64,000 nucleotides of DNA from Solirubrobacteraceae bacterium (GCA_051955355.1 JBQCGU010000072.1:170-64169); one strand, 5' to 3'. Positions 22,099 to 44,119 are shown, numbered from the stretch's first letter. Made by a program: numbers and translations. The notes: generated by a model from the letters alone, not told the origin.

Positions 22099-23226
<1,128 letters not shown>

Positions 23227-23244
23227 TTTTCTACTCCTGACGGC

Positions 23245-23312
23245 GCTCGCTGGCGCCTTGCGGTTCGGAGGTTCTGGCTGACCCGAACCGCTCCTGCGGG
23301 ACTCAAGCGAGC
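23245..23312 (-). promoter_or_regulatory. Structured 5' leader of the DEAD-box helicase gene
   Basis: Nested inverted repeats 23245-23251/23306-23312 and 23260-23268/23283-23291 just upstream of RBS. Confidence 0.45.
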
Positions 23313-23421
23313 TAACCTCGCGGCCGAAGGTGTCGACCGCTGCCGCAGAAGGTAGCAGACCCTTGTCCGCAGGGACCGCCCAGCCCAACGCGAGGCAGTG
23401 CCGATTGGCGGGTGCACCAGC

Positions 23422-24351
23422 TCAGTCCATCCCCAGCGGACCGCTTGCCGATCCGCTGAGGAACTGGCGCACGAACGGGTTCTCCGAGGAGAACATCCGC
23501 TCGGCGTCCCCCGCCTCGACGATGCGCCCGCGCCAGAGCAGGGCGATGTACTCGCCGATCCGTCGCGCCGAGGCGATGTCGTGGGTGACGACGATGTAGG
23601 TGCCGCCGTTGGCTTCGTGCATCTCCTTGATGAGTTCGCACAAGAGCGCCGTGCGCACCGGATCAAGGCCCGAGTCGGGCTCGTCGAAGATCACCACATC
23701 CGGCTCGGTGACTAGCGCGCGCGCGAAGCCGGCGCGCTTGCGCATCCCGCCCGACAGTTGCGAGGGGAAGACGTCGATCGCGTGGCCGAGGCCCACATCC
23801 ACCAGGCGCTGGGTGACCACCTCGGCGATCTCGCCCTCGCGCATGTCGGTGTGCTGACGCAAAGGAAACGCCACGTTGTCGAACACCGACATCGAACCGA
23901 ACAGCGCGCCGTCCTGAAAGAGCACGCCGATCCGCTGGCGCAGCTTCAGCAGATCGGGCATCGTCAGCTTGGGGACGTGCTTGCCGAGCACTTCGATGTC
24001 GCCCGAGTCGGGGAACATCAAGCCGATCAGGTGCTTGATGAGCACGCTCTTGCCCGTGCCCGAAGGACCGAGCACGACGGTGACCGTGTCGTCGGGAATA
24101 GCGACGTTGAGGCCGTTGAGCACCGGGATGCCCGCCAGGCGCTTGACCACGTCGGTGCAGCGGATCGACCACTCGCGGTCAGTCGAGGAGCCGCTCAGGT
24201 CGAGCTCGCTGGAGTGGTATTGGAACTCCTCCTGCGCCTCCCCGTGGCTGTCCGGCGTCAGAGCATCCTCGAAGGGCTCTGGCGTCTCCCCAGCGTCGGC
24301 GCGGCTCGAGTCAGCGCTGTCCACGGCGCAGATACTAGTCCGAGCAGCCAT
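23422..24351 (-). CDS. MlaF/Mkl (MceG)-like ABC ATPase
   Basis: GPSGTGKS, LFQDGALFGSMSVFDNVAFPL, SGGMRKRAG, FDEPDSGLDP; near Mce cluster. Confidence 0.92.
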   Translation of the reverse strand: MAARTSICAVDSADSSRADAGETPEPFEDALTPDSHGEAQEEFQYHSSELDLSGSSTDREWSIRCTDVVKRLAGIPVLNGLNVAIPDDTVTVVLGPSGTGKSVLIKHLIGLMFPDSGDIEVLGKHVPKLTMPDLLKLRQRIGVLFQDGALFGSMSVFDNVAFPLRQHTDMREGEIAEVVTQRLVDVGLGHAIDVFPSQLSGGMRKRAGFARALVTEPDVVIFDEPDSGLDPVRTALLCELIKEMHEANGGTYIVVTHDIASARRIGEYIALLWRGRIVEAGDAERMFSSENPFVRQFLSGSASGPLGMD

Positions 24352-24367
24352 CTGCAATCAATCCCCG

Positions 24368-24402: not shown

Positions 24403-24432
24403 TTGACATTCCGAGGCTGAGCGGTCTACGAT
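24403..24432 (+). promoter_or_regulatory. Sigma70-type promoter TTGACA-N18-TACGAT for TetR gene
   Basis: Consensus -35 at 24403-24408, -10 at 24427-24432. Confidence 0.55.
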
Positions 24433-24559: not shown

Positions 24560-25243
24560 ATGTTCCACGACAGGCACTTCGCGGACGGAGACGGAGTCCC
24601 CGCGGAGGCCCCTCCCCAGGCATCCACGCTGACCGTCGCACAGCGAGGCGATCCCCGCCGACGGATGCTCGACGCGATGATCCACACGGTGGCCCTGCGC
24701 GGTTATGAGCGCGCAACCGTCAGCCGCATGCTCACCTACGCCGAGCTGCCCGAGGCTGTTTTCAGCGAGCACTTCACCGACAAGCACGACTGCTTCATGC
24801 AGGCGCTCGACGAGCTGATCACCAGCGCCGAGCGCGCGGCGATCGAGCACTTCGCCCTGCCCGTGCCGTGGCGTGAGCGGGTGAGGGACGCGCTGGGCAG
24901 TCTCGTCGACGCCCTCGTCTGCAACGAAGATGCAGCCAGGGTGCTGTTCGTCGAGATGCTCGCCGCCGGACCAGCCGCCCTGGAGCGCCAGCACCAAGCG
25001 CTAGAGCTGTTCACCTCGCTCGTCGAGCAGGGCCGCTCGTTGGCGCCCCACGCCGACCAACTTGCACCGCAGACCTCCGAAGCGATTGTCGGGGGGATCG
25101 CTTCGATCCTGCACCGGCGGGCGCTGCAGGGAGAAGTCGCGCAGCTTCCGACACTGCTCCCCGAGCTTGTCTACTTCGTACTGCTGCCTTACCTGGACCA
25201 GAGTGAGGCGATGAGCGCCGCAGAGCTGCCCACGGCGGCCTAG
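24560..25243 (+). CDS. TetR/AcrR family regulator
   Basis: RRRMLDAMIHTVALRGYERATV...F.EHF..K..CF; RBS GGGAGG. Confidence 0.85.
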   Translation: MFHDRHFADGDGVPAEAPPQASTLTVAQRGDPRRRMLDAMIHTVALRGYERATVSRMLTYAELPEAVFSEHFTDKHDCFMQALDELITSAERAAIEHFALPVPWRERVRDALGSLVDALVCNEDAARVLFVEMLAAGPAALERQHQALELFTSLVEQGRSLAPHADQLAPQTSEAIVGGIASILHRRALQGEVAQLPTLLPELVYFVLLPYLDQSEAMSAAELPTAA

Positions 25244-25553
25244 CGGCATCTTCCAGGCACTAGCCGACTTCTTGCGGGACGACCTCCTTGACGCTTAAAG
25301 GTGGCCGGCTCACTCTGTAACCACCGTGTCTGAGTAGGGCTTCGGTGGCAGTCGACCCAGCCCCGGAATTCCACCCAGAGGCCGTCGAGAGATCTCATGC
25401 CACTCGATAAGCAACCTCGAGACAAGACACGAAGCCCCGTTCCAGATGTCGATACGACCTTCGTCCAGGCGGCTTGCATCTTTGACCACTCCCGGATTAC
25501 TATCTTCATGCGTTCTAATTCTTAGGACGATTCGAAAGTCAAAGGAGGTCGTC

Positions 25554-25913
25554 ATGAAGCGCCTACTGTCGCTTCTCTTGCCGGCTGCCGCCACAGTAAT
25601 CGCACTTACTTGCATATCTGTGCCGGCAGCCTCTGCCAGCTGGGAAGGTGGATGTGAAAAATGCACCAAAATCAGTGGACCCAATGAAACCCTCGATATA
25701 ACCAGCACCGAAAATATGTCCGGAAAAGGCGTGTGTGCCATTCTCTGGAAATACAACGGTGGCACAAACTATAACGTTGAACAGGAAGTGTGTGGCGCAG
25801 AAGCCACGCTCGCCGTCGCCAAAATACCGAGCACAATCACCGGACATGGCGAGGGTGAAGCATGGTTCCGTGAATTCACGTACAGGCTCTTACTATTTCA
25901 GTGGATACAATAG
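25554..25913 (+). CDS. Small secreted Cys-containing protein, low GC, unknown function
   Basis: RBS AAGGAGGT; signal peptide ending ASA; mature part with 4 Cys; AT-rich codon usage. Confidence 0.75.
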   Translation: MKRLLSLLLPAAATVIALTCISVPAASASWEGGCEKCTKISGPNETLDITSTENMSGKGVCAILWKYNGGTNYNVEQEVCGAEATLAVAKIPSTITGHGEGEAWFREFTYRLLLFQWIQ

Positions 25914-26569
25914 CCATGATAAAGCTAAGACTAAACATGCAATCGATACTCTCGAAAAACAGTGGCAGCCGCCTCATGCGGCGCGTCTCGGCCGTAGGCA
26001 TCGTCATAGCCGTCGGCATATTCGGTTCGTTTGCCTATGCAAGTGTTGGGCATAAGGCGGCGACGACATTCAAGAACGAAAAGAGCCAGTCGCCGCCTTC
26101 TGCGCATTTTTCAGTGCTAACGCACCCTCCGCATTGGGCGCAGCGAATAGTAGGCGTGAGCAGTGACCGCCGGTCGCCTCATGCCATCCTTGCATCGACA
26201 CTCGATGGCAGCGAGCTATACGTGTCCGAAGAAATCAGTACCGCGTCCGGCGAACAACTCGTTTGCCTCACGGTGCAGGAAGCCAACGGAGCCACGAGCC
26301 ACGTATGCGCTTTACGCAGCGACGCCGAGCAGCACGGGCTCGTTGTAAAGGACGCTAGCCGCACAGCTACTGGTCTCCGTACTAGGGTCGACATGCTAAT
26401 GCCGGACGGCACTAGTGACATCAGCGTCACTGGTAATCACGAACGACGCACGATTGCGTTGCACAATAATGTCGCCCAAACAGAGATCGGTCACGTCGAA
26501 TCAGTGACATATACCCTTCCCGACGGCGCAGTAAGAACCGTACTCATCCCATCCGGCGCGGAAGAATAA
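25901..26569 (+). CDS. Membrane-anchored/secreted protein, low GC, unknown function
   Basis: N-terminal hydrophobic segment, 2 Cys, PDG motifs; start may be 25916 or 25937. Confidence 0.7.
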   Translation: MDTIAMIKLRLNMQSILSKNSGSRLMRRVSAVGIVIAVGIFGSFAYASVGHKAATTFKNEKSQSPPSAHFSVLTHPPHWAQRIVGVSSDRRSPHAILASTLDGSELYVSEEISTASGEQLVCLTVQEANGATSHVCALRSDAEQHGLVVKDASRTATGLRTRVDMLMPDGTSDISVTGNHERRTIALHNNVAQTEIGHVESVTYTLPDGAVRTVLIPSGAEE

Positions 26570-26730: not shown

Positions 26731-28242
26731 TTACTTGAACGGCGTCGCGTGTGGGAACTGGCTGGTCTGGCCGTTGAACGCGAACGGACCCTGCTGCTTG
26801 CACGGCGGAGCGGGCACTTCATTGGTGGCGCTGCCAGGCCGGTTGGCGACGTGGTAGTTGAGCAGCAGCTGTATCGCTTCCTTGAGTTCCTGGCTGACCG
26901 GTTCGCTCGATTCGTCGCTCAGCGCGGGTGCTGAGTCTGAGCACGAGCGGCTGTCGAACACCGGGAGGCCACTCGCGAGCTGGTTGAAGGTGCCAGGCAG
27001 CGGATAGGCGTTGGCGCGGTTGGTGCCGATGCGCTGCTGGTAGATGGACAGTCCTTCGGGGGTGAACACGTTCATGACCCGCAGGAAATGTTGAGGCCCT
27101 CCGCCGGTGACGTTCCCGTTTTTTTCGTGTGGCTGGCTGGCAGCCGTGGCATTCGCGAACAGCGCTTCGAGCTCTGGCACGTACATGCTCGTGTAAGCCA
27201 GGAACGGGTTGAAGTTGTGAAGCACCGGGTCGAGTGCCGCCAGCACCGGCTCGGTGAGCTTTGTGAACTGCTTGACGGTTGGCAATCCCTTCTTGGCCGC
27301 CTTCGTGAATCGTCCGAGCGAGGTCAGGAAGGCGTCGAACTGAGGCGCAAACGGCTTCGTCGCCTCGAGCAGCGGCGCCAGCTGTTCCTCGGCGGGACGG
27401 ATCTGGTCGAGCAGCGGCACCGCATCGGTGGCGAAGCTGTCGAGACTGCGCAACGCCGTGCGCGAGTTGCGCTCGAAGGGCGGCAGCAGTTGGAAGGCGT
27501 GCGCAAACGCCTGGCTGGCTTGAGCGGCGCCGTGAATCGCGTGCTCGCCGTTGGCGAACAGGCCACGGAACTGCCCCTCGCGTTCGGTGAGCGCGTCGAA
27601 CACGGTACCTGTGTTGTGGATCGAGGCACGCAGCGCGCCCTCCTGGGCGTCGAGCACCGTGACCAGCTTGTTGGCCGATTCGACGAACGGCAGCAGCGAG
27701 CCGAACGAGGCGTTGATCTGTTCGCCGCGGTGATTGAAGCTTTCGGCGAGCGACTGCATCCACACCTGGAACGACTTGCGCGTCTTGGTGTCGAACGCCG
27801 CCAGGACGTCGTCGAGCGTCACCGACGGTTCGACCTGGATGTTCGGCAGCTGGCCTTCGTCTTTCAGCGGCGGCGCCGCGCGGCTCTCAGGGATCAGTTG
27901 AACATAGGTCTCTCCGAGCAGCGTCTTCTGGCGGAGGATCGCGTGCATGTCCGAGCGGATCGGCGCGTACTTGCTGGCGATTTCGATCGTGGCGTGGGTG
28001 CGGCCGTCTTTGCCCAGCTTGAGGCTCACGACATGGCCAACGGGCACACCGCTGATGCGCACATCGGACTGTTCTGCCAGCAGAAGCGTGCGCGGGAAGG
28101 CGATCGTGAAGCGGTAGCTCTTGGACTTCAACGGAACCGGGCCGCCGAAGGACTCCCACATGAAGAGCAGCAGCCCGAAGCAGCTGAGCGCGAACAGAAC
28201 GATCACGAGCAGGTTGCCGAGCGTGGGGGCGCGCTTTTGCAT
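26731..28242 (-). CDS. MCE/MlaD family protein
   Basis: N-terminal TM, SDVRISGVPVGHV, RQKTLLGETYVQL, long helical region. Confidence 0.92.
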   Translation of the reverse strand: MQKRAPTLGNLLVIVLFALSCFGLLLFMWESFGGPVPLKSKSYRFTIAFPRTLLLAEQSDVRISGVPVGHVVSLKLGKDGRTHATIEIASKYAPIRSDMHAILRQKTLLGETYVQLIPESRAAPPLKDEGQLPNIQVEPSVTLDDVLAAFDTKTRKSFQVWMQSLAESFNHRGEQINASFGSLLPFVESANKLVTVLDAQEGALRASIHNTGTVFDALTEREGQFRGLFANGEHAIHGAAQASQAFAHAFQLLPPFERNSRTALRSLDSFATDAVPLLDQIRPAEEQLAPLLEATKPFAPQFDAFLTSLGRFTKAAKKGLPTVKQFTKLTEPVLAALDPVLHNFNPFLAYTSMYVPELEALFANATAASQPHEKNGNVTGGGPQHFLRVMNVFTPEGLSIYQQRIGTNRANAYPLPGTFNQLASGLPVFDSRSCSDSAPALSDESSEPVSQELKEAIQLLLNYHVANRPGSATNEVPAPPCKQQGPFAFNGQTSQFPHATPFK

Positions 28243-28245
28243 CTG

Positions 28246-29745
28246 CTAGCGCCCCCCTCCGCCGCTGCCGGCAAGACGTGCGAAGGCGCTGCTCTTCGAC
28301 GCCAGCAATCCGTTAGCCCCGCTGGCGCTGGAGCTTGAGCCCACACGACTGGCTGAGGCTTTGCTCGAGCTGGATGTGGCTGCCGGAGCCTTCAGACCGA
28401 ATTGAACGCATTCTTCACCTGTGGGCGGTTTGAGTAGGGCCACGGCGACCTTGACAGAGCTATTCACCGCCCCAACCGCTTTGAGGAGCGGGAGCACTTC
28501 ACAATTGAGATAAGCGAGTGTGCGTCCGACCGGACCGTGAGCATCGGCCGTGCTCAGCACGCTGTTGAGGTCGTGGTTGGCCCAGTCGAGGAAGAACATG
28601 AAGCCGCCCTGCTTCGGCCCTGGGTTGTAACCGAGCTCGTTGAAGAATTCGTTGAACACGGTGAAGCTCGTCACCAGCTCGGGGGCCGCTTCGGCGAACT
28701 GCTTCAGCGTCGGCTTGAACTGGTTGAAGATCGGCTGCACCCGGCGTGCGAACGGCCCGATTTCGTTCTTGAAGATCGGGGCTGTGTGCCGGAACAGCGG
28801 ACGCGAGGCTTCCTCGGCCGGAGCCACCGCCTTGGCCCATGGCTCGAGTGCCTTGAGTGTCGGCCCTGTGACTTCGGAGGCCGCGGCCAGCTTGCCCAGG
28901 CCGCTGCGCGTCTTTGCAAGCGCGCCGGGCAGCAGGTGCAGCGTGCTCTGCAGCGCCTGATCCTGTTCGGCGAACGTCTTGAAGACTGTGTTTGAAGCCT
29001 TGATCAGCTGCGCCAGTTCGGTGTCCTTGCCGCCAACGGCATTCATGACGAGCTGGAAGTTGTGGACCGAGCGTTCGATGTTGCGGCTGCGCAGCTGGAG
29101 CTGGCTGGTGATCTCACGGATATAGCGGGCGATCGGATCGAAGCGCTTGAACGTCGCCGACAAGTTGGAGGCGTTGCCCTTCAGGCCTTCGCCAGCACCG
29201 GCGAGCAGCTCCTGCAAATAGGCGCGCGTTTCGCCGTCGAGTGCCGAGAGGAATTCGTCGAAGTTGACGTTCGGCGCGGTCTGGGCGAGCGGCAGTCTGT
29301 AGCCGCCCGGTATGCGTCCAGCCGATGGCGTGCCGGGATCTATCTCCACGGTCATGTCGTTCAACTGTGTCTTGGGGCGCAGTAGAGCTGTGGCGTTGCG
29401 ATAGATGTAGTGCGCGTACCTGGGCGTCAGGTTCATCGTCACGAGCGCGTTGCCCTGATGCTGTTCCACGCGCGCGATTTCACCGATCTTCGCGCCGGCG
29501 ATCGTCACAGCCTGTCCCTGACCGGGCGTGAGCGCCTGCCCCGTCTCGAAGTCGCCCGTAAGCGTGTAGTAGCTCTTGCCCACGATGGGCACCCAACCGG
29601 GCAGCGACAGGCGCTCCTGAGTGAGGATGTAGCCGCCGACGAGCACGGCAAGCACGATCATCGCCACGACAGAGATGAACGCCGTGCGGTAACGCGCGAT
29701 CTGATCGCGAATGCCACGCTCGCCGTGGGACTGAGTCGCCATCAT
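28246..29745 (-). CDS. MCE/MlaD family protein
   Basis: TM, GQAVTIAGAKIGEI, LRPKTQLNDMTVEIDPG. Confidence 0.92.
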   Translation of the reverse strand: MMATQSHGERGIRDQIARYRTAFISVVAMIVLAVLVGGYILTQERLSLPGWVPIVGKSYYTLTGDFETGQALTPGQGQAVTIAGAKIGEIARVEQHQGNALVTMNLTPRYAHYIYRNATALLRPKTQLNDMTVEIDPGTPSAGRIPGGYRLPLAQTAPNVNFDEFLSALDGETRAYLQELLAGAGEGLKGNASNLSATFKRFDPIARYIREITSQLQLRSRNIERSVHNFQLVMNAVGGKDTELAQLIKASNTVFKTFAEQDQALQSTLHLLPGALAKTRSGLGKLAAASEVTGPTLKALEPWAKAVAPAEEASRPLFRHTAPIFKNEIGPFARRVQPIFNQFKPTLKQFAEAAPELVTSFTVFNEFFNELGYNPGPKQGGFMFFLDWANHDLNSVLSTADAHGPVGRTLAYLNCEVLPLLKAVGAVNSSVKVAVALLKPPTGEECVQFGLKAPAATSSSSKASASRVGSSSSASGANGLLASKSSAFARLAGSGGGGR

Positions 29746-31244
29746 TCGCTCCCGTCCGCCGGACCCTGGGAGAGCGGGCCGTTGAAGTCAGGGACCTTCT
29801 GCGTGTAGCAGGGCACGAGCGGCTTATAGGGAGGCTCGCTCGCTGGGAAGGCCGGACGTGTGCCTTCCGGAGTGTCGGCGGTGTGTGCCAACAGCCTGAA
29901 GCCGGCGCGCGTTTTCTCGCCGACGACAGAGGCTGGACGCGAGCGAAGCGTCTGGGTGCCGGTGCTGATGAGGAAGCGCGGCATCAGGCCGTTGCCGTCG
30001 AAGTTCTCGCCTGTGCCGGCGAAGCCCACCATCGCCTCCCAGAATTCCTTGTAGTTTTCGACACCCGAGGTGTTCGGTCCGTCCTGAAGCTTGGCGTTGC
30101 CCGACGGGAAGATGACGTTCGTGAAGCACTTGGCGAGCGCATCCCCCTGCTTGAAGAGCGAGTTCTGTGCGTTGACGATCTGAGCGAGCGTCGGCGAGGC
30201 GGCGCTCAGGCTCTTAGCCAGCCCGCCGAGCTCGCTCGGCGTCAGGGTTGCCTTCACTTGTTCTATCCACGGGAGCGCCGCAGCGATCGTCGAGGGCAGC
30301 TGTTCGACTCCGGGGACGAGGTCGAGCGAGAACGCGCGGATCGACGGTGCCGCCGCGTTGAAGCCCGTGAATGCGCGGCGGGCGTTGCGCAGCGTCCCCG
30401 GCAGCTCGGCGACCGCTGCGCTCACGCTGCTCGACTGAGCGGCGAAGGCGCCGAGGAAAGTGTTGAAGTTGGCGACCAATTCGCCGAGCTGCTGCTCGTG
30501 CACGTTGAGCGCCGCCGTGAAGCGCCCGACGCCGGCGACCAGCTTGGAAAGGTCGTGCTGTTCGACGCCGCCAAGCGCCTGGTTGACGACCGCGCCGCCC
30601 CTCAGGCCTTCCGGCGCTTCGATGTACGACTTTTTCAACGCCTGCGCGGCGTTCAGCCCGCGCACCGCCGGGTTCTGTTCGGCGTCCTGTTCGGGCGTCG
30701 GCTTCTGCGTGAGCGCCTTGCCGTATTCAGCCAAGAACGTCTGCAGGTTGGCGCGCGTGTCGGTGTTGAGCGCGTCGAGCACCTGGTCGAGCTGCACCGG
30801 ATCGGATGTCTGGGTGATCGGGATCGTGTGGCCGGAGGAGACGGTGGGCGCTGAGGGTGTGCCGGGCTGCAGTTCGACGAACCAGTTGCCTTCCAGAAAC
30901 GTGCGCGGTCGGATCTTCAGTGTGGCGTCCGAGTGAATCGGCAGGCCGGCGCCTGAGATTTCCATCGTCACCACGCCCGCATTGCCCTCGCGCTGGACCG
31001 ACTTGACGACACCGACGTCGACGCCCGCGACGCGCACGGGCGACTTCGGGCTGATGTTCAGGGCGCTCTGGAACACCGCGTTGAGCCGATAGCCGTGCGT
31101 GAACGGGACGCGCTTGGTGAAACCGAAATAGACGACGACCGCCACGATGGCAAGGACGACCAGCCCGAAGCGGACGGGGTTGGAGCGCTGAAGCTCGGGG
31201 ACGGGCAGCTCCTGGTAGCGCCGCCACCAGCGCACGCGGCTCAT
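29742..31244 (-). CDS. MCE/MlaD family protein
   Basis: TM, SPVRVAGVDVGVV, IRPRTFLEGNWFVELQPG. Confidence 0.92.
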   Translation of the reverse strand: MSRVRWWRRYQELPVPELQRSNPVRFGLVVLAIVAVVVYFGFTKRVPFTHGYRLNAVFQSALNISPKSPVRVAGVDVGVVKSVQREGNAGVVTMEISGAGLPIHSDATLKIRPRTFLEGNWFVELQPGTPSAPTVSSGHTIPITQTSDPVQLDQVLDALNTDTRANLQTFLAEYGKALTQKPTPEQDAEQNPAVRGLNAAQALKKSYIEAPEGLRGGAVVNQALGGVEQHDLSKLVAGVGRFTAALNVHEQQLGELVANFNTFLGAFAAQSSSVSAAVAELPGTLRNARRAFTGFNAAAPSIRAFSLDLVPGVEQLPSTIAAALPWIEQVKATLTPSELGGLAKSLSAASPTLAQIVNAQNSLFKQGDALAKCFTNVIFPSGNAKLQDGPNTSGVENYKEFWEAMVGFAGTGENFDGNGLMPRFLISTGTQTLRSRPASVVGEKTRAGFRLLAHTADTPEGTRPAFPASEPPYKPLVPCYTQKVPDFNGPLSQGPADGSE

Positions 31245-32791
31245 TTGCGCTTCCCTTTCTTCTTGTTCGGGTGCGCCAGTTCGACCGCTTCTTTGCCGAG
31301 GTCTTCGAGCGTCTTCTGGGGGTACGTTTCGCCGAAGCGGTCTTGGTTGCGACCGGTCTTGTCGTAAGCCTTGCCGGAGGCGGGGGCGTTGCCGATCACC
31401 GTCTTGCCTTGGACGTACTGCTCGTTGCCCGCTTCGCAGACACTCGATCCCACCTTCGGATAGGGGTTGGCGTGCAGGTGATTGTCTTCGATTTTTTCGC
31501 CTGAGCCGTTCTTATCGAACGATGTGCTGTTCGCCGGCGCCGACGCGGGGATCCCCTCGTTGTTGGGATTCACTTCGTTTGCCGCCCCGGTGGGCGAGCC
31601 GGCCGGAGCAAGCAGCGGTGCGGCGCGAGCGAGCGTGCCCACGCCGATGCTCTCGGACAGCAGGTTGGAGATGTTGCGGAAGGCGAGAGTGCCGTAGTTG
31701 CAGTCGACCTGCGCGTTCCTCAAGCCGGTCACGAGGGGGGTGCCGAGCGTGACGGTGTGCGTGAGGTCTTCGAGCGTGGTCTGAACGATGGGGTTCTGAG
31801 CGAAGGCTCCGAGTGCCTTGGACGCTTCGGCGACATCCCTGTTGAGGGCGGTCGCCTCGCGCAAATTGACGGCGCCGACCGCGAACGCATGCCCGATCGG
31901 TTGGGCGGTGGTGCGCAGCGCTTCCGCACCAGGACGCAGCAGGCGCATGAACTCGGTGCTCTTTTCCACGAAAGGAGCCTCGAAGGGCAGCGAGTGCGTG
32001 GCCTGGCGCAGAGATGCCGGCCCTTCGACAATCGCTTCTTCGAGCGATGGAGCGACGCTGGCCCACGCGGCGAAGAACGCATCAAGGTCGCTGTAGAACC
32101 CGGCCTGAGCGTGTGCGACCGGGGCCACTTCTGTGGCTGCACGGTCAAGGGCAACCCACAGCTCGTGGAAGCCCGTCTGCGGCGAGGCCAGGTTGTGCAG
32201 CACGGGAATGGCCTTGTTGACGAGAGGGCGCAGCTCGGCGAGCGTTTCGTTCAATTCGATGCCGCGTCCAGCCAGCCCGTTGCCGAAGGTGGTGGAGTTG
32301 ACCTGCGCGGCTTCCCGCGTCTTCTTGTCGAACATGCCGAACAGCTGGTCGATGTCGACCGGTTCGCGCGTGTGCGACAGCGGGATCGTGGCGCCCGCTT
32401 TGAGCGTCTGCGCCGAGCTGCCCTTCGACAGGGACAGGTACTTCAACCCGATCGGCGAGACCGACTGCACTACCGCGGTCGTGTCGGCGGGCAGCGGTTC
32501 GACACCCTTTTCGAGCTTCAGGTGGGCGATCGCGGTCACCCGTCCTGTGGATGAGTCCTCGTGCGGGCTCAACGACCCCACCATGCCGACACGCGTGCCG
32601 GCGATCTTCACCTGGCTGCCCGGCTGCACGCCCGAGGCGTTCGGCAGCTGCACGCTGATGTCGTACGTCGGCGTGAACGGCAGGCCGTTGTTCGCGTTGT
32701 AGGAGAGGTAGACGGCGACGACCGCAATCAGCGTCGTGATCGCCCCTATCAGAAGCGGGCTGCCGGCGAGCGATGTGGAGCGGCGATTCAT
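31241..32791 (-). CDS. MCE/MlaD family protein
   Basis: MNRRSTSLAGSPLLIG TM, GSQVKIAGTRVGMV, SPIGLKYLSL. Confidence 0.92.
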   Translation of the reverse strand: MNRRSTSLAGSPLLIGAITTLIAVVAVYLSYNANNGLPFTPTYDISVQLPNASGVQPGSQVKIAGTRVGMVGSLSPHEDSSTGRVTAIAHLKLEKGVEPLPADTTAVVQSVSPIGLKYLSLSKGSSAQTLKAGATIPLSHTREPVDIDQLFGMFDKKTREAAQVNSTTFGNGLAGRGIELNETLAELRPLVNKAIPVLHNLASPQTGFHELWVALDRAATEVAPVAHAQAGFYSDLDAFFAAWASVAPSLEEAIVEGPASLRQATHSLPFEAPFVEKSTEFMRLLRPGAEALRTTAQPIGHAFAVGAVNLREATALNRDVAEASKALGAFAQNPIVQTTLEDLTHTVTLGTPLVTGLRNAQVDCNYGTLAFRNISNLLSESIGVGTLARAAPLLAPAGSPTGAANEVNPNNEGIPASAPANSTSFDKNGSGEKIEDNHLHANPYPKVGSSVCEAGNEQYVQGKTVIGNAPASGKAYDKTGRNQDRFGETYPQKTLEDLGKEAVELAHPNKKKGKRK

Positions 32792-32792
32792 C

Positions 32793-34199
32793 TCATGGGA
32801 CCTGCGTGGGGTCGCAGCCGAGCGAACCGTTGTCGGTGAACGGCGATGAGCCATCGGGCGCCGGCTGGGTTGCCGCGCCGGGACAGCGACGCAGCTGGTG
32901 GGTCTTGAGGCCCTGCAGCACACGCTGCGGGTTGGCCGGCTTGAGCGTGTTGCCTTCGAGCTGGAAGTCTGGGAATATCGCGCCGCTGCGGACGTAGTGG
33001 CCGCTGGAGTCGTAGTAGGACGATCCCTGGCCGAACGTTCGGATCAGGCCCTCGAAATCAGGGGCGTAGGGACCGAAGAAGGCGGTCACGGGCAGCGATT
33101 CTTCCAGTGAGCGCACGCTGTTAGGCGAAGCGCTGGAGAGCGTCTTTGCGAGCCCCGGCAGAGCGAGCGCAACTTCGGTGAGGTCGTTGTTGGCACCGGG
33201 ACGTTCGATCGCTTGGCTGAACTCGCGCAGCACCGGGGTGGATGCGGTCACCAGGCCGTGCAATCCGGCGAAGAACGACGCAAGGTTCTTGGTGCCGGGC
33301 TTGGAGACATCCACGAGCTTGCGCAGCGCCGCCAGCGTGCCGGGCAGCTGCTGAAACGTGCGGTTGCCTTCATGCAGAGTCGCCGGCAGTTCCTGCAATC
33401 CGCGCGTGAGGCTCGACTCCTGCGAGCCAATCGCCGCGAACGTCGTGTTGGCGTTGCTCACCAGTTGGGTGAGTTCGGTATGGCGAGCGGCCAGCGTGGT
33501 TGTCGCCTTGGCAGATTCGACGAGGAACCGTTCGAGCGAGGGGGTTTCGCGCGCAAGCTCGGCAAGCACGTGGGTGAACGAGCTCAGCGCCGGCGGGAAG
33601 TAGAGCGAGTCGGTCTGCAGGGCCGATTCGGCCCCCGCGTACTGTTCGCCCGAGCCTTGGAGGAACTGCTGAAGGCCCTTGCGCGTACGTTCGTTGAAGA
33701 CGTTGAAGAGTTGGTCGAGGTTGACAGCACCACGGATCTGGCTGCCTTCCAGCGTGGCGCCCGAGCGCAGCGCCGGGCGGTTGTTTGGTCCGGGCGTGAG
33801 CGCGATGTAGCGATTGGCGACCGTTGCCAGGGACGGCACGCGTATTTCGGCGCCCGTACCCTCGTGCAGCGGAGTGAGCGACGGGTCGACATGGATCGTC
33901 ACACGCGCCCGGTCGTCGGAGGTGAGCTCGATGTCGGTGATCGTGCCCACGCGCGTGCCGCCCACCTGGACTTCGTCTCCGCGCACGAGTTCGCTCGCTT
34001 CGGGGAAGACGAGCTGATAGGTGGCTCCTTTGCTGCCACCGAGCACAAGCGCCAGCACGAGCAGGGCCACGACGGCAAGAGCCCCCGCAGCAGCAAGCCG
34101 GGCTACGCTCGCTCGGTTCGGTCCTGGCCCGGCTTTTGCCGAGCGCTCCAGCGGAGCGCTCGGTCCCCCGGGCGGAGTAGGCGGTGCAGCGGTTGCCAT
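32793..34199 (-). CDS. MCE/MlaD family protein
   Basis: TM, GDEVQVGGTRVGTI, VANRYIALTPG. Confidence 0.92.
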   Translation of the reverse strand: MATAAPPTPPGGPSAPLERSAKAGPGPNRASVARLAAAGALAVVALLVLALVLGGSKGATYQLVFPEASELVRGDEVQVGGTRVGTITDIELTSDDRARVTIHVDPSLTPLHEGTGAEIRVPSLATVANRYIALTPGPNNRPALRSGATLEGSQIRGAVNLDQLFNVFNERTRKGLQQFLQGSGEQYAGAESALQTDSLYFPPALSSFTHVLAELARETPSLERFLVESAKATTTLAARHTELTQLVSNANTTFAAIGSQESSLTRGLQELPATLHEGNRTFQQLPGTLAALRKLVDVSKPGTKNLASFFAGLHGLVTASTPVLREFSQAIERPGANNDLTEVALALPGLAKTLSSASPNSVRSLEESLPVTAFFGPYAPDFEGLIRTFGQGSSYYDSSGHYVRSGAIFPDFQLEGNTLKPANPQRVLQGLKTHQLRRCPGAATQPAPDGSSPFTDNGSLGCDPTQVP

Positions 34200-34201
34200 T
34201 G

Positions 34202-36193
34202 TTAGCCGCGACCTCCATTCGATGCGCTCCCGGCGTGGTCAGGGATCGCTGCGGGCGAGGGCTTGTCGGTCACGTTCGGATCGGGGATCTGTCCGAGCCG
34301 AGCGATCAGCTTGACCCATTGGGCCGGTGAGAGCCCACCGCTGACGACGGACGAGATACGCGCCTGGTGAGCGCCGTGCAATCCGTAGGAGACGCGAATC
34401 CGGTGGGGATGACCGGGGATCACGACTACGTTGCTCGCCTTTGGCAGGCCCGCCGGGCCTGAGATCGTCAGGGGCTGCATCGTGCCTTGGAGCGTCAACA
34501 GCCTCTGCACGGCGCTCACCGCAATCAAGGAAGCGTTGCCATTCGCGCCCACGACGGCCACCCGGCTGATCGCCGAGATGCTCACGGCGCTGCCCGAGTT
34601 GCAGCTGCCTGCGCTGACCGTGGGTGCGAGCCCGGAAGAAGCCATGAACTGCAGAACGGTAAGCACGCGCCGGTCGACACGTCCGTCCGCGACGAGGCGT
34701 CGCTCGCACGCGGGAACCACGATGTCGCGCTCGCGCGCGATCTGGCGCTCCAGCCGGGCCTTGGACTCGAGCAACGCTTGACCGGCAGTCGGGAGAGCCA
34801 TCTGCGCTGCGCCGCTCTGGCTGCTGATCCTGATCGCCGAACTGCTCTGCAGCTTCACCCAGCCGTCGAGCACCGGCTTGGGGTCTATCAGCGGAGCATC
34901 GGGTCCAGCGGGCTTGACCTGGAAGAGCATGTGCGGCTGCGCCGCCGAGCCGCCGTCGGTGGCGAGATGGCCGAGCACCGTGCCGGCGATGACCTGGACG
35001 CCGTCGTTGAGCGGATGCAGCGAGAAGCGCTTGCGTCCTTCGAGCACCGGATAGAGCCTCGCCAACTCGCCGAGTTGGCCATACGTGTACGTGTTGCCGT
35101 AGGCGTCTACGAGCGTCACATAGCGGCCGAGATCGGCGGATTCGCCCATGCTCGCTACGCGCCCGTCCTGAACGGCGATCACAGGAGCGTCCGATTGCGA
35201 GTAGATCGTCGTGCCGACGAGCGTCTTGCCTGTGCTCGTCGTCGAGAAGCCATCGTCGTAGTGAGACGGTGCGTACACAGGGAAGCGCGCTTCGCTGAGA
35301 CCGGTGACCGCGCCCAGGAGTTGCGGCGGGGTGCCGCCGAGCAGACGGGCGCGCAGCATGACCGAGTTGACGTACGCCTTGGAGTGGTTGTACGCGAATA
35401 CGGCTGTACGGATGTCGTGCGCGCCACCGGCATCCTTGAGGTACCGCGCGGCGGCGAAGATGGCGTCTGCCGGGTTGTAGGGGTCCTTGAAGCCGTCGTT
35501 GTTGACGTCGACCCCGAACTGGCTCCACTCGACCGGCAGGAACTGCATCCACCCCTCCGCGCCGGCGCTCGAGAGGTTGAGGTCGCGCCCGTAGTCGGTC
35601 TCGACTTCGTTGATCGCTGCGAGCACCTGCCATGGGATGCCGTACGCGGCTCCCGCCGCCTGGTAGATGGGCAACAGGAACGGCGGGATGCTGAAGCTGT
35701 TGATGAAGAAGCTCGGCACTCCGCCCATGGAATCCGACAGCGATGGTGGGAGTGCCGGTGTGAGCGTCCCGGGAGTGAGCGCCAGCGCGTGCGCGAGCGC
35801 CCTGCCGGCGGCCTTGGAGCCGCTCGCGGAGCCCGATCGCGACTGCGCCGGGCGGGACGGCTCGGCTGTAGTCGCGTTGCCCTGAGACGAAGCAGTTTCG
35901 CCACTGTTGGGCTGGGGGCGTTGCCCGAGGGCTGCGGGGGTGGGCGATGGGGTTGTCGTCGCTTGCGTGGTCGTGACGGTTTGCGGTGGCGCCCCGGGTT
36001 CGGTGGGCGCCGTTGTTTGGGCTGCGCCCGGCGGGGGAGTCGGAGTCGAAGTTGTGGTCGGGCCGGCAGAAGCTTCTGCGGAAGACCCGGGAGCGGATTC
36101 GTCGGCGAACGCGAAGGCCGCCGGCTGCAGCGCGATAGCCGCCGACACACCAGCCGTGAGGATCGTCTGTATGAGAAGCCGTTGCCGCGCCAT
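34202..36193 (-). CDS. Secreted lytic transglycosylase with degenerate M23-like domain
   Basis: Signal peptide, T/P-rich linker, AINEVETDYG...GWMQF, DAIFAAARYL; M23-like segment with YGQL and HMLF in place of YAHL and HLHF. Confidence 0.85.
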   Translation of the reverse strand: MARQRLLIQTILTAGVSAAIALQPAAFAFADESAPGSSAEASAGPTTTSTPTPPPGAAQTTAPTEPGAPPQTVTTTQATTTPSPTPAALGQRPQPNSGETASSQGNATTAEPSRPAQSRSGSASGSKAAGRALAHALALTPGTLTPALPPSLSDSMGGVPSFFINSFSIPPFLLPIYQAAGAAYGIPWQVLAAINEVETDYGRDLNLSSAGAEGWMQFLPVEWSQFGVDVNNDGFKDPYNPADAIFAAARYLKDAGGAHDIRTAVFAYNHSKAYVNSVMLRARLLGGTPPQLLGAVTGLSEARFPVYAPSHYDDGFSTTSTGKTLVGTTIYSQSDAPVIAVQDGRVASMGESADLGRYVTLVDAYGNTYTYGQLGELARLYPVLEGRKRFSLHPLNDGVQVIAGTVLGHLATDGGSAAQPHMLFQVKPAGPDAPLIDPKPVLDGWVKLQSSSAIRISSQSGAAQMALPTAGQALLESKARLERQIARERDIVVPACERRLVADGRVDRRVLTVLQFMASSGLAPTVSAGSCNSGSAVSISAISRVAVVGANGNASLIAVSAVQRLLTLQGTMQPLTISGPAGLPKASNVVVIPGHPHRIRVSYGLHGAHQARISSVVSGGLSPAQWVKLIARLGQIPDPNVTDKPSPAAIPDHAGSASNGGRG

Positions 36194-36196
36194 AGC

Positions 36197-37741
36197 TCAG
36201 TTGCCAAGCAGGTAGTTGAGCAGCATTCCGCTTGCTTCGGACCCTTCTTCGGATGGCGCGTAGTAGGTCGTGCCGGACGCGGCGCCGCCGACGGGCTGCG
36301 TGGTGGTGGCCGTACCGGATGCCGGAGCGGCGCCGGTCGTGCCGGCTTCTCCAGGCAGGGGACCCGGGTACTTGGCCACCGCCTGCGCGGGGGACATCCC
36401 GTTCAGGATCGCGAGCGTGCGGGCCATCACGAGACTCGTGCTGCGATCGCTCGCCACTCTGGCGGCCGAGCCTTCTCCGCCGATGAATTTGCCGTTGCAG
36501 TTTCCCGGCGTGATCCGATAGGTCAGGCAGTTGGGGTATGCCTGGATATCGGCGCGCAAGAAGTGGCCAAGCGAGTCGTAGCCGTTCTCAACCCCGCCGC
36601 CGAGGTAGATGAAGTCGAGCAGGCGCTCCAAACCGCCCGTTTTGCGGAAACTGCCGAGCGCTTCAGAGAGGTTGCCGGCGAACGGCTTGGCGGCTGCCCC
36701 CAGGGCCTTCGTGCGTGTGAGCAGCGGCTGCACGTGTTCGATCGCTGGACCGGCGACCTTCGTGCTCTTGCCGAGCGAGGTGAAGAACGCTTCGGCGGAC
36801 TTGGAGAAGCCGGGGATGTGCTGGAAGGCCTGGGTCAGGCCGGGCGCAGCGACGCCCAGATCGCGCAGCGTCGGTGTCGTCTGATCGGCGAAGCGTCCGA
36901 GCCGTTCCATAGCCGGTCCCAACTGGCGCAGGAAGGCGGGGAAGTCGGCGAAGTTCTGGGCGAGCGCACCGCGATGGCGGGCGGTGGCCTGCGCGAGCGT
37001 GTTGCTCTGCGTGATGAAGTCGGCGAGCTTGCCGCGTTCGGCGGCAAGCGGCGCGAGCGCGCGGTCGGATTCGACCGCCAGGCTGGTAAGCACATGGTTC
37101 TCGCTCGCGAGGATCGAGAGCACCGCTTCGAGTTCCTGCAGCGCCGGGTTGGCGCGGCGGATGAGCGCGTTCAAGTCCTTGCCGCGGCCGGCAAACGTGG
37201 CGCCCAGCTCGTTGAGGATGATCGTCAGGCGCTGTCGCTCGGGCAGGCGGTTGATGTCGCTGATCAGATCGGGGTCGACCGGGCTGTGCGTTTTCGTGAC
37301 CGGAAGCAGCCACTCCCCTGCTCCTTCCTGCCCGGAAGGAATCTTCTTCAGCGCTGGCGGCAGCGGGGTGCCTTCCACGCGCGGTTGGGTGGGCAGACAG
37401 TCGACGAACTTCTCGCCGATCAGCGCCTGCGGGCGGACCTGGCAGCTGGCGTCGGTGCGGAAGTTCTGGAAGCCGGGGTTGGAGATCCCGATCACAACGG
37501 CTGCCTTGCCCTGCGGCGTGGGCGTGACCGATTGCACGCTGCCAACCTTGACCCCGTCGATCTTGACGTCCTCCCCGGCGATCACGTTGCCCGCGTTGTC
37601 GAAGATCGCACGTACTTCGTAGCCGCCGCTCGACCCACCGGCGGAGGTGGCGAGCACGACGACGAGGGCGAGCGCGAGCACGCCGGCGGCACCGGCGATG
37701 GCAGGAGCCCATCTCCTCCAACTTGCGCTCTTCGTCTTCAA
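36197..37741 (-). CDS. MCE/MlaD family protein
   Basis: TM, GEDVKIDGVKVGSV, RPQALIGEKFVDC; TTG start with GGAGG RBS inferred. Confidence 0.9.
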   Translation of the reverse strand: MKTKSASWRRWAPAIAGAAGVLALALVVVLATSAGGSSGGYEVRAIFDNAGNVIAGEDVKIDGVKVGSVQSVTPTPQGKAAVVIGISNPGFQNFRTDASCQVRPQALIGEKFVDCLPTQPRVEGTPLPPALKKIPSGQEGAGEWLLPVTKTHSPVDPDLISDINRLPERQRLTIILNELGATFAGRGKDLNALIRRANPALQELEAVLSILASENHVLTSLAVESDRALAPLAAERGKLADFITQSNTLAQATARHRGALAQNFADFPAFLRQLGPAMERLGRFADQTTPTLRDLGVAAPGLTQAFQHIPGFSKSAEAFFTSLGKSTKVAGPAIEHVQPLLTRTKALGAAAKPFAGNLSEALGSFRKTGGLERLLDFIYLGGGVENGYDSLGHFLRADIQAYPNCLTYRITPGNCNGKFIGGEGSAARVASDRSTSLVMARTLAILNGMSPAQAVAKYPGPLPGEAGTTGAAPASGTATTTQPVGGAASGTTYYAPSEEGSEASGMLLNYLLGN

Positions 37742-37887
37742 CCCGATCGTTCCCTCCACCTTTGGACGAGATTGGGGCGGCTTCGCCTCACTTCGGCGAC
37801 GCCGCCCCGATCCCTCTTGCTGCGACGCTGCCCCATGCCACTGGAGCACAGGGCAGCGTATTGCTTATTGCCTACGGCGGGGTGACC

Positions 37888-38751
37888 CTATTTCTTGGGG
37901 CAGGGCACCTTGACCGTCTTGGTCACCTTTTCCCATGTGGATTCGGCGCCTGCACCGAACCACATTTCGCCCTTGCCTGGGAAGCCCCCCTTCGGGCACT
38001 TACGCGGGATGGTGCCAAGCGAGACCAGTTTGCCTTTGACCTTGCGAGCGGCACCGATCGTGACGGTCGCGGATTCGGAGCTTCCGTCGGGAGCACCCTG
38101 CACCGTTTCGATCAACGGAACGTCGGTGACGAACTTCCGACCGAAGAGGCCGCTGGCCGCCTGGAATTTGCCGGCGAAGGGCAATTCGATCACGGTCGGC
38201 GTCACGCCTTCGAGGTAGAAGTTCAGGCCACCGCCAGGGGCGAAGTAGGCCTGGACCTTGACCGCCTCTGCCACGCGCGTACCGCCGAAGCTCACCACGC
38301 CGCAACCTTCGCTGGCGCCGCCGGCAAGCGGTTTCGACGGAGGACACGCTTCGGGGGCGACCTGAGGCGCGTGGCCGGCGGGGCTGGCAAGGGAGCCCGC
38401 GGGGCACTTTTCCGGTTCGTGGTTTTCGAGGGTACGCAGCGAGCACGTCGGGAAGCCCGTGGTGTGAATCCCCACGCCCTTCGGCAGCCAAACGGCGACA
38501 CGCCGGAGAGGAGCGGGGAATCCGCCGTATTCGGTGCCTTTGATCAGAAACTTCGTTTCAAGCGACGCCGGGGCGCCGAGGAAATTGCCCGTATGAGGCC
38601 AGAAGCCGGCTTTCGGTTTGGCCGGGTTCTTTAGGACGGGCAGGATCTTGACGTGAACCGTGACTGTGGGCGCCGCGAGCGCGGACGCCGGAAGACCCAA
38701 AGCCAGTGCGGCGAGGCCGAGCATGGCCAGTCGGGTGGATGCTCTGCGCAT
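37888..38751 (-). CDS. Secreted beta-rich protein of unknown function heading the Mce operon
   Basis: RBS AGAGGAG; signal peptide ending ALA; several Cys (FPTC, EKCP, RKCP, VPCP). Confidence 0.8.
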   Translation of the reverse strand: MRRASTRLAMLGLAALALGLPASALAAPTVTVHVKILPVLKNPAKPKAGFWPHTGNFLGAPASLETKFLIKGTEYGGFPAPLRRVAVWLPKGVGIHTTGFPTCSLRTLENHEPEKCPAGSLASPAGHAPQVAPEACPPSKPLAGGASEGCGVVSFGGTRVAEAVKVQAYFAPGGGLNFYLEGVTPTVIELPFAGKFQAASGLFGRKFVTDVPLIETVQGAPDGSSESATVTIGAARKVKGKLVSLGTIPRKCPKGGFPGKGEMWFGAGAESTWEKVTKTVKVPCPKK

Positions 38752-40116: not shown

Positions 40117-40160
40117 CCGCGATGATCCTATCCGCCGACCCGCCCGCGAAAGGAGCCGCG

Positions 40161-41369
40161 ATGGACTTCAAGCCAAGCGAGCGCTGCCAAGCGCTCATCG
40201 AGCAGCTCACGCAGTTCATGGACGATCACGTCTATCCGGCCGAGCCGACCTACGAGCAACAGCTGCACGACTCCGGCGATCCGCACCATCAGCCGGGGGT
40301 CATGGAGGAGCTCACGGAGAAGGCCAAGTCGGCAGGCTTGTGGAATCTGTTCCTGCCCGACGCCGAGCGCGGGGCAGGGCTGTCGAACACCGACTACGCA
40401 CCGCTTGCGGAGATCCTCGGGCGCAGCCACATCGCCTCTGAGGCGTGCAACTGCTCGGCACCGGACACGGGCAACATGGAGGTGCTGCACCAGTTCGGCT
40501 CTCCAGAGCAAAAGAACCAATGGCTTGACCCTCTACTGGAGGGTGAGATTCGCTCTTCGTTTGCGATGACCGAGCCGGATGTGGCGTCGTCGGACGCCAC
40601 CAACATCTCATTGCGCATCGAGCGCGACAGCAACGACGGGTATGTGCTCAACGGACGCAAGTGGTGGATCTCAGGGGCGCTTCACCCCCACTGCCGGATC
40701 ATGATCGTGATGGGCAAGACAGACCCGAACGCCCCGCGCCACCGCCAGCAGAGCATGATCCTCGTGCCCATCGACACGCCCGGCGTGACGATCGTGCGCG
40801 GCCTGCCCGTGTTCGGCTACCAAGACCAGGAGGGCCACGCGGAAATCCTCTTCGAGGATGTGCGTGTGCCGGCGTCGAACCTGATCGCCGGCGAGGGCGA
40901 TGGCTTCATGATCGCCCAAGCACGCCTCGGCCCCGGACGCATCCACCACTGCATGCGCTCGATCGGAGCAGCCGAGCGGGCGCTGGAGGCGATGTGCCGG
41001 CGCGCGGCGCAGCGCACGACCTTCGGCCAGCCGGTGGCTGCACGCGCGAACATTCAGGACTGGATCGCCGAGTCGCGCGTTGAGATCGAGATGGCGCGCC
41101 TGCTCACCCTCAAGGCGGCGTGGCTGATGGACACGGTGGGCAACCGTCAGGCGCGCATGGAGATCTCCGCGATCAAGGTGGCGGCCCCCAACATCGCGCT
41201 GAAGGTGGTTGACCGGGCGATCCAGGTGCACGGCGGCGGGGGGGTGTCAGACGACTATCCGCTCGCCTCCGCCTACGCCCACCTGCGCACGCTGCGCCTG
41301 GCGGACGGCCCCGACGAGGTGCACAAGCTCAGTATCGCTCGCCGGGAGCTCGCTCCGTATCTAGCTTGA
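40161..41369 (+). CDS. Acyl-CoA dehydrogenase
   Basis: [50 protein letters not shown]. Confidence 0.95.
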
Positions 41370-43592: not shown

Positions 43593-43599
43593 CGCGGCA

Positions 43600-43953
43600 T
43601 CATGGTTTGACGGGGGTGACGGCGTCGCGGTCGGTGTCGCCGGTGCGGATGCGCACGACTTCCTCGAGCCCCACCACGAAGATCTTGCCGTCACCGACTT
43701 CTCCGGTGCGCGCGCCCTGGCAGAGGGCGTCGATCGTCGGCTGAACGAAATCCTCAGAAACGGCGATCTCGAAGCGAACCTTCTCGGCGAGCTCCATCTT
43801 CACGGTGGTGCCGCGATAGGTCTCGACGCGATCGAGCTCACCCCCGTGGCCCTGCACACGGCTCATCGACAGCCCGCGCACGTCAGCGCGATACAAGGCC
43901 TCGAGCACGTCGTTGGCCTTCTCAGGACGGATGATCGCGATGATCAGCTTCAT
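43600..43953 (-). CDS. glnK: P-II nitrogen regulator
   Basis: MKLIIAIIRP, T-loop ETYRG, RTGEVGDGKIFV, RIRTG; upstream of amtB. Confidence 0.93.
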   Translation of the reverse strand: MKLIIAIIRPEKANDVLEALYRADVRGLSMSRVQGHGGELDRVETYRGTTVKMELAEKVRFEIAVSEDFVQPTIDALCQGARTGEVGDGKIFVVGLEEVVRIRTGDTDRDAVTPVKP

Positions 43954-44119
43954 GCAGGGCATTCTGCCAGCAACCCTGCGAGCAGGGAGCGTGCGGGTCG
44001 CCGCCTCAATACACCGCACCAGCCAATTGTTCTATTGACCAGAATTTAGGCCCGCGCTAGCTTGGGATCACAAGGCGCTGTACGACCCGCGGCGCACCCG
44101 CGGCGAAAGGAGCTGCTCG

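Follow-up and report, generated by a model that had tools for sequence, protein, structure and literature searches.

How the needle of an Mce transporter, some 20 nm long, passes the peptidoglycan is a point that the current Mce literature does not address, and it is the question raised by a locus from a Solirubrobacteraceae bacterium (GCA_051955355.1, JBQCGU010000072.1:170-64169), in which a gene for a murein hydrolase lies inside an mce operon, between the genes of the first two MCE subunits. The locus sits in a stretch of 64 kb (GC about 67%) from a rhizosphere metagenome, which was analysed as a whole; we call this stretch the window, and all positions follow its own numbering. A 2026 review of the field sets out the YrbEAB-MceA-F-MceG architecture, with the ring and needle known from Mce1, and has no mention of peptidoglycan or hydrolases (PMC13492129), and our full-text literature searches returned no paper in which 'mce operon' occurs together with 'lytic transglycosylase', nor any on Mce in Thermoleophilia. 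We believe, with somewhat better than even confidence, that the window encodes a form of the actinobacterial Mce ABC transporter of hydrophobic substrates which is peculiar to a lineage of soil Solirubrobacterales and in which the embedded hydrolase would open the wall, or hold it open, for the needle.

The operon (26731-38751, minus strand) consists of eight packed genes, namely those of a secreted protein of 287 residues (SEC287), MCE#1, the hydrolase and MCE#2 to MCE#6 (Table 1). An earlier note on this DNA had given the same coordinates, had listed a secreted protein, an MCE gene, a transglycosylase and five further MCE genes, and had described the run as tightly coupled; the coordinates and order are correct, and the coupling is borne out by spacings of -4 to +3 nucleotides from MCE#1 onward. 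The junctions from MCE#1 to MCE#6 measure +3, +2, +1, -4, -4 and +3 nucleotides, the first two of which are the distances of the hydrolase gene from MCE#1 and from MCE#2, respectively. There was no excess of terminator-like sites in the operon region (10 found, against 11.4 expected from shuffled sequence), and the genes are presumably co-transcribed; a search for RNA runs that contain the sequence returned none. Chimeric assembly was considered as a source of the arrangement and rejected because about 75 independent metagenome-assembled genomes (MAGs) have the identical gene order.

All six MCE proteins exceed the gathering score of Pfam MlaD (PF02470) and match the NCBIfam model TIGR00996, 'MCE family protein', and each has one N-terminal transmembrane (TM) helix and one MCE domain; the MlaD scores of MCE#1, MCE#2 and MCE#6 are 45, 50 and 59 bits. 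When the proteins were compared with canonical subunits by phmmer, MCE#1 scored 102, 93 and 94 bits against MceB and at most 73 against other subunits, MCE#2 scored 122, 129 and 119 bits against MceA and at most 74 against the others, and MCE#6 scored 131, 146 and 138 bits against MceF. The exception is MCE#5, which is ambiguous, its scores falling between canonical MceE and MceF; otherwise, each of the six mutually distinct paralogues has its own counterpart among canonical MceA-F. Going by the best phmmer scores, the order around the hydrolase is swapped, a point that the earlier note had missed, with the MceB-like gene before it and the MceA-like gene after it, followed by C, D, E and F. 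On these assignments, the 5' end of the ancestral six-gene mce operon is rearranged.

What the earlier note called a transglycosylase does contain an SLT domain with its catalytic Glu, but that description was incomplete, as the M23 domain and a conserved C-terminal domain had been overlooked. The protein begins with a signal peptide and a linker of some 110 residues rich in Pro and Thr (together residues 1-140); an MltB-type lytic transglycosylase (LT) domain with catalytic residue E198 follows at about 141-310, then a degenerate LytM/M23 domain at about 311-445 and, at about 446-663, a C-terminal domain of some 220 residues that is conserved, degenerate and LAS/M15-like. Pfam detects SLT_2 (PF13406) at 53 bits (cut-off 24.3), SLT at 36.5 bits and Peptidase_M23 at 30.5 bits (cut-off 28.7). 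In an alignment, the motif AINEVETDYGR of the LT domain falls on IGVETRWGR of E. coli Slt35, where the catalytic Glu of that enzyme is located, and E198 is invariant across 21 homologues; the stretch between this Glu and the GAxG(W/Y)xQF motif is much shorter than in MltB. Pairs of homologues are on average 88% identical in the LT domain, 74% in the LytM domain, 62% in the C-terminal domain and 41% in the linker.

The middle module is a degenerate LytM domain because the zinc ligands are absent from all homologues: in 21/21, (V/A)G(T)TIY stands in place of HxxxD and PH(M/I/L)(L/V)FQ in place of HxH. A LytM fold for this domain was returned by Foldseek with probability 1.0 to lysostaphin, LytM and EnvC from an underlying model of low confidence, and the structures matched include degenerate LytM domains, those of EnvC, DipM and SpoIIQ. 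For the C-terminal domain of the window protein, Pfam and PDB searches gave nothing. The C-terminal domain of a homologue from Conexibacter, however, has SEHSSGNAVD and DHADHIH, which we take to be LAS/M15 (VanY-like) signatures, and this homologue also gives a weak match to Extensin-like_C (E=0.054); motifs of this metal-binding type (SxHxxGxAxD and HxH) are missing from the C-terminal domain of the window protein and of the other embedded copies. Going by these motifs, the domain would be a degenerate LAS/M15-like module, and the transglycosylase domain is the only one of the three that keeps its catalytic residues. The degenerate LytM and LAS-like modules probably act as peptidoglycan-binding or docking modules.

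Gene calls for this protein family in databases need care in this clade, as split or merged ORFs are common at loci of long-read MAGs. The database call for the window hydrolase (P0005, 508 residues) takes an internal Met as its start and is without the signal peptide. A homologue of 1079 residues (P0100; locus L015, MAG CAVXTI01) was considered as a natural fusion and rejected, being the tail of the preceding MCE protein joined out-of-frame to the hydrolase.

Relatives share this arrangement. Database homologues of the hydrolase number more than 7,900, and those with a name come from Solirubrobacteraceae MAGs. We surveyed one genome per species, which gave 539 confirmed stretches, and analysed the best 80; all are Solirubrobacterales MAGs, which agrees with the lineage guessed in the earlier note. 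We take the bearers to belong to the class Thermoleophilia and to be without mycolic acids. When adjacency was counted from the ordering of hit envelopes, an MceB-like gene stood directly upstream of the hydrolase in 75/76 testable loci and an MceA-like gene directly downstream in 73/75, so that the succession MCE-SLT-MCE, on whose conservation the note had staked its proposal of a distinct Mce architecture, is kept in the mce operons of relatives and the architecture is indeed a distinct one. In two relatives, the full order is ACAD (acyl-CoA dehydrogenase), PurM-like, SEC287, MCE, hydrolase, five MCE, TetR, ATPase and ImuB-like. The embedded core is kept though identity has fallen to 45-75% for the hydrolase and to 37% for SEC287. 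The flanks vary among relatives, in the presence of the TetR gene, in the duplication of SEC287 and in the order of the PurM-like and ACAD genes, and in the window a DEAD-box helicase gene has been inserted; the core and its junctions of 2-3 nucleotides are constant while the flanks rearrange.

Several observations weigh against a role for the hydrolase in transport, or against the transport system as we conceive it. The region is collinear across genomes, and therefore the adjacency counts probably reflect one retained ancestral event: all loci may trace to a single rearrangement. If so, the conservation is retention and not repeated origin, and the synteny is weaker functional evidence than the raw counts suggest, although the retention of the core is still notable given the varying flanks. 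In a Conexibacter MAG (locus L070), a hydrolase homologue of 43% identity is not embedded in an mce operon but is a separate gene, with a canonical mkl-yrbEA-yrbEB-mceA-F-MMPL operon lying about 8 kb downstream of it; the enzyme family can therefore work on its own. The AlphaFold2 (AF2) model of the hydrolase is poor (predicted local distance difference test score, pLDDT, of 42, with 21 close homologues), and the LytM fold was the only one recovered from it. Finally, no permease for the system was found in the window or in the 10-kb flanks of 79 related loci, a point to which we return below.

Canonical operons are found also in Paraconexibacter and in several other Solirubrobacterales assemblies. 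Since the standard system thus occurs in the same taxonomic order, and since the window MCE proteins reach only about 100-145 bits against their canonical counterparts, the window operon is, by these comparisons, a divergent derivative of it. In three of the canonical operons (L087, L089 and L090), a gene for an MMPL-family transporter stands directly after the operon, and not the Mam genes described for mycobacteria.

The lone Conexibacter copy allows another account of the embedded gene, in which an ordinary autolysin of growth or wall turnover landed between mce genes in one ancestor and has since been co-expressed with them, with no role in the transporter, retained because its excision would break the operon. 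The collinearity of the whole neighbourhood is consistent with one such inherited event, and the canonical Solirubrobacterales mce loci other than that of Conexibacter have no hydrolase gene within 10 kb. However, the embedded copies have lost the metal ligands of both the LAS/M15-like and the LytM modules while the LT domain has been held at 88% identity, which looks like specialisation, and the short junctions have been kept on both sides of the gene in a core that does not rearrange when its flanks do. We therefore consider this account unlikely, though one to be taken seriously. That the hydrolase instead serves the transporter by opening the wall is suggested by the synteny, the tight coupling and the intact catalytic Glu, and by analogy with the dedicated transglycosylases of flagella and of type III and type IV secretion systems.

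The candidate motor of the system, overlooked in the earlier note, is encoded close by. A gene for a soluble ABC ATPase of the Mkl/MceG type lies 2.4 kb downstream of the last MCE gene, on the same strand. In NCBIfam, MlaF is the top-scoring family with 205 bits, short of the equivalog cut-off of 441, and the runner-up has 155 bits; against the Mkl proteins of the canonical mkl-yrbEAB-mce operons of Conexibacter and Paraconexibacter it scores 379 and 371 bits, respectively, with a self-score of 690. An ATPase gene stands downstream of the last MCE gene in 68/68 loci of the embedded type with enough flank. Judging from this homology and linkage, the ATPase is likely to be the motor of the system.

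To look for a yrbE gene, we screened all six frames of the window for TM helices, which yielded only five polytopic ORFs. Four are assigned by Pfam, to an ABC-2 permease, AmtB, an M50 peptidase and FtsX; the fifth, of 142 residues (4334-4759), fell outside the Pfam scan. A hidden Markov model (HMM) for MlaE/YrbE was built from E. coli MlaE and the YrbEA and YrbEB proteins from plasmids of Pseudonocardia and Streptomyces. At E<1e-99 it finds both the proteins it was built from and the yrbEA/B genes of control loci, and across six frames of the window, with --max, it gave nothing better than E=3.8. With the same HMM, yrbE was absent within 10 kb in 79/80 related loci, the exception being L070, and also in L002 and L003, and no polytopic ORF, whether PqiA/LetA-like or other, was found near the operon. 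Two candidates for an overlooked permease were rejected: the gene upstream of the operon is PurM-like and does not encode a membrane protein, and SEC287, though of the size of a YrbE, has a signal peptide only.

We also searched for YrbEB proteins with two Solirubrobacterales YrbEB queries, taking the best 120 matches for each, all of at least 57% identity. Among these matches, none lies on an operon-bearing contig, of which more than a dozen are chromosome-sized, and only L070 of the 80 loci is represented; the contexts examined were always canonical operons of other assemblies. A yrbEB of the canonical type is thus excluded on the operon-bearing contigs, provided that the word-based candidate filter dropped nothing, whereas a system-specific YrbE as divergent as the window MCE proteins would escape the best 120 matches. 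The earlier note had been right that the window holds no yrbE or mlaE gene, as the TM screen, Pfam and the six-frame HMM search agree, and this absence extends to the 10-kb surroundings of 79 relatives. As a statement about the system, its wording 'no YrbE permeases' was too strong, for the linked Mkl/MceG ATPase argues for a permease somewhere. A conserved Mkl implies a transmembrane partner, and Casali and Riley, 2007, found Mkl, DUF140/YrbE and Mce always together in the Actinomycetales genomes of their survey (PMC1810536); for these two reasons, we think it most likely that a YrbE-type permease is encoded elsewhere in the genome, unlinked to the operon.

The same negative searches could be read at face value. 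The genomes would then be without any MlaE or YrbE, and either the TM helices of the MCE proteins or an unrecognised membrane protein would couple to Mkl, or the system would be a passive conduit of the Pqi/Let kind beside an incidental ATPase. The absence of yrbE from the window and from 79 sets of flanks, and of operon-bearing contigs from the best YrbEB matches, is what this predicts. Against it stand the exceptionless co-occurrence just cited, the transmembrane partner that a conserved Mkl implies, the lack of a PqiA/LetA-like ORF, and the ease with which a divergent YrbE would have been missed among the best 120 matches, and we hold it to be improbable. A bolder version deserves the same small measure of belief: in genomes without MlaE/YrbE, Mkl and the heterohexameric MCE needle would use a new membrane module, made of the MCE TM helices or of an unlinked and unrecognised protein, and the transglycosylase-dLytM protein, as a seventh subunit in stoichiometric amount, would guide the needle through the wall of a monoderm.

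SEC287, which leads the operon, has a good ribosome-binding site, an ATG start and a cleavable signal peptide, with cleavage between ALA and AP. It has four invariant Cys, lacks a sortase motif and has no match in Pfam, NCBIfam or the PDB sequences, against which a profile search came back empty. The family comprises 542 representative clusters, some of them fused to Big_3_5 bacterial Ig-like domains. The AF2 model (pLDDT 89.9) is all-beta, apparently with two sandwich domains, and has no PDB fold match at E<=0.001, the best of the weak matches being Gram-positive pilins and the Ig-like domains of integrins. SEC287 is present in 70/72 testable related loci. We take it to be a secreted accessory of the Mce system, apparently built of two beta-sandwiches, and it might serve as tip, receptor or cargo, as the earlier note suggested. 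Three tandem copies are found in one MAG (L081 4952-7937), and L041, L048, L052, L060 and L065 each have, on the upstream side of the PurM-like gene, one more copy that has diverged.

A TetR-like gene, likewise overlooked in the earlier note, sits between the ATPase gene and the operon and is present in about half of the related loci. The window protein has no Pfam or NCBIfam match of its own; it is homologous to the products of PF00440-bearing genes in the same position in L002 and L003. A sigma-70-like promoter match (10/12 positions) is found at 24403-24432. A TetR-type repressor probably regulates the operon. The ACAD gene adjoins the locus in most relatives, and one is also found upstream of a canonical operon, L091; a link to lipid catabolism is possible, and the membership of this gene in the system is uncertain.

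These neighbours bear on the direction of transport, which we presume to be inward. A machine for building the envelope could be imagined instead, in which lipids are moved outward or the membrane is tethered to the wall, with the hydrolase and SEC287 as partners in wall remodelling and not as aids to assembly. Mla, Pqi and Let maintain the lipids of the envelope rather than feed the cell (PMC13492129), a Streptomyces mce mutant has altered envelope properties (PMC3552289), and relatives of SEC287 are fused to surface Ig-like domains. Yet the ATPases of the Mkl family fall in the importer clade (Casali and Riley, 2007; PMC1810536), and an adjoining acyl-CoA dehydrogenase with a TetR-type regulator fits catabolism of the substrate, and we regard an export or envelope-building machine as very unlikely.

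Based on these observations, we propose the following model for the system we favour, an Mce importer with its own wall-opening enzyme. Expression would be under the control of the TetR-type repressor, and the hydrolase would be translated from the middle of the same mRNA as the transporter, between its first two subunits. The six single-pass MCE proteins would form a heterohexameric ring and a helical needle, as known from Mce1. The transglycosylase would cut glycan strands locally, or hold the thick wall open, at the site where the needle is assembled, with the dead LytM and LAS-like modules serving in peptidoglycan binding or docking, and SEC287 would take part as an accessory protein. Transport would be powered by the linked Mkl/MceG ATPase through a YrbE-type permease supplied from an unlinked site, and the TetR and acyl-CoA dehydrogenase genes would fit the uptake and catabolism of a lipid.

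The remainder of the window places the operon in its surroundings (Table 1). No homologue of the hypothetical genes that lie downstream of canonical operons was found in the window, where no model dedicated to Mam was used. The stretch 25310-26569 (GC 0.61) contains an ORF of 151 residues with an N-terminal TM helix (25310-25765, minus strand) and one of 222 residues (plus strand); neither has a family match, both are absent from all 80 related loci, and the stretch looks like an insertion specific to the window. Downstream of the ATPase gene, as in relatives, lie genes for an ImuB-like Y-family polymerase (20868-22049) and an error-prone DnaE2 (17176-20571; NCBIfam, 943 bits), and the DEAD-box helicase gene (22099-23388), undetected at this place in related loci, is inserted between the ImuB-like gene and the ATPase gene. 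A possible lipid-modifying cluster unrelated to the mce operon is found at 7914-13134, where an acyl-CoA thioesterase is grouped with an ABC-2 exporter pair and with a fusion of thioester reductase and short-chain dehydrogenase that could be a fatty acyl reductase. A tmRNA gene (53637-53998, minus strand) adjoins a gene for a phage-type integrase (52012-53109, minus strand), with SmpB at 55876-56355 (minus strand), and beside the tmRNA and integrase genes lies a stretch of about 10 kb of lower GC (0.62-0.66; 44000-54000) that is probably a genomic island integrated at ssrA. Housekeeping pairs are amtB-glnB (42252-44019) and ftsE-ftsX (59262-61288).

Table 1. Genes of the mce locus and its immediate neighbours in the window, with the basis of each assignment.
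Feature	Position	Strand	Basis
SEC287, secreted 287-residue protein	37888..38751	-	Ribosome-binding site, ATG, signal peptide
MCE#1, MceB-like, single-pass	36197..37849; real start probably TTG near 37741	-	Pfam MlaD, TIGR00996, phmmer
Three-module murein hydrolase, 663 residues, secreted	34202..36193	-	Pfam SLT_2, SLT, Peptidase_M23
MCE#2, MceA-like, single-pass	32793..34199	-	Pfam MlaD, phmmer
MCE#3, MceC-like	31241..32791	-	ATG at 32791, 1 nucleotide past MCE#2 stop
MCE#4, MceD-like	29742..31244	-	Start overlaps MCE#3 stop by 4 nucleotides
MCE#5, MceE/F-like	28246..29745	-	Start overlaps MCE#4 stop by 4 nucleotides
MCE#6, MceF-like	26731..28242	-	Pfam MlaD, phmmer
TetR-like regulator gene, divergent from ATPase gene	24560..25243	+	Homology to PF00440-bearing genes of relatives
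Mkl/MceG (MlaF-family) ABC ATPase	23422..24357	-	NCBIfam MlaF best match; synteny
Acyl-CoA dehydrogenase (ACAD), divergent neighbour	40122..41369	+	Pfam ACAD domains

A lineage that has hard-wired a transglycosylase between its mce genes leads to a testable proposal, that Mce assembly needs local remodelling of the wall, at least where the wall is thick. Because the bearers are abundant, uncultured Solirubrobacterales of soil and rhizosphere, the system may also matter for the scavenging of lipids in soil.

The window operon shares its basic plan with the Mce1 and Mce4 systems of Mycobacterium, with those of Streptomyces and with the mkl-yrbEAB-mceA-F operons of Solirubrobacterales: one packed operon holds the genes of six single-pass MCE proteins that have long helical regions, with an ATPase of the Mkl/MceG type and with genes for a TetR-type regulator and an acyl-CoA dehydrogenase nearby. 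Unlike these canonical systems, it has no linked yrbEA or yrbEB, and mkl, which is upstream or unlinked in the others, is found downstream of the mce genes. The murein hydrolase gene separates the MceB-like gene from the MceA-like gene that follows it, SEC287 leads, and no Mam/Mas-like or MMPL gene was recognised after the operon. With MlaFEDB, PqiABC and LetAB, the operon has in common the MCE domain as the element of a ring or tunnel for hydrophobic cargo, and PqiABC and LetAB are MCE systems that work without MlaE. Those systems, however, are homohexamers whose MlaE or PqiA/LetA partner is encoded next door, and no such gene stands beside the window operon; in addition, each window protein has one MCE domain, in contrast to the multi-domain MCE proteins of PqiABC and LetAB.

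A pairing of transglycosylase and mce genes may extend beyond Solirubrobacterales. On a plasmid of Streptomyces sp. NBC_00467 (NZ_CP107895; L006 3674-15601), a gene of the SLT_2 type lies two genes upstream of mkl-yrbEAB-mceA-F. In this case, the gene is outside the operon, behind a sigma-factor gene, and encodes a single-domain protein of 339 residues, of which 83 residues align at 42% identity.

The closest functional parallels come from outside the Mce field. Dedicated lytic transglycosylases are known from secretion and motility machines, mostly of diderms, such as VirB1 in type IV secretion, EtgA/IpgF in type III secretion and FlgJ/SltF in flagella, and are usually small, single-domain enzymes of family 1. 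As with these, the window transglycosylase has an intact catalytic Glu and is encoded inside the operon of what would be a wall-crossing machine. It differs from them in being MltB-like (SLT_2), in having, besides a long Pro/Thr linker, two peptidase modules that are degenerate, and in belonging to the operon of a lipid transporter in a presumed monoderm. Its middle domain, a LytM fold with an incomplete zinc site, resembles EnvC, NlpD, DipM and SpoIIQ, and in SpoIIQ a degenerate LytM domain is a structural part of a trans-envelope channel. Unlike all of these, the window protein joins its degenerate LytM domain in one polypeptide to a transglycosylase with an intact catalytic Glu.

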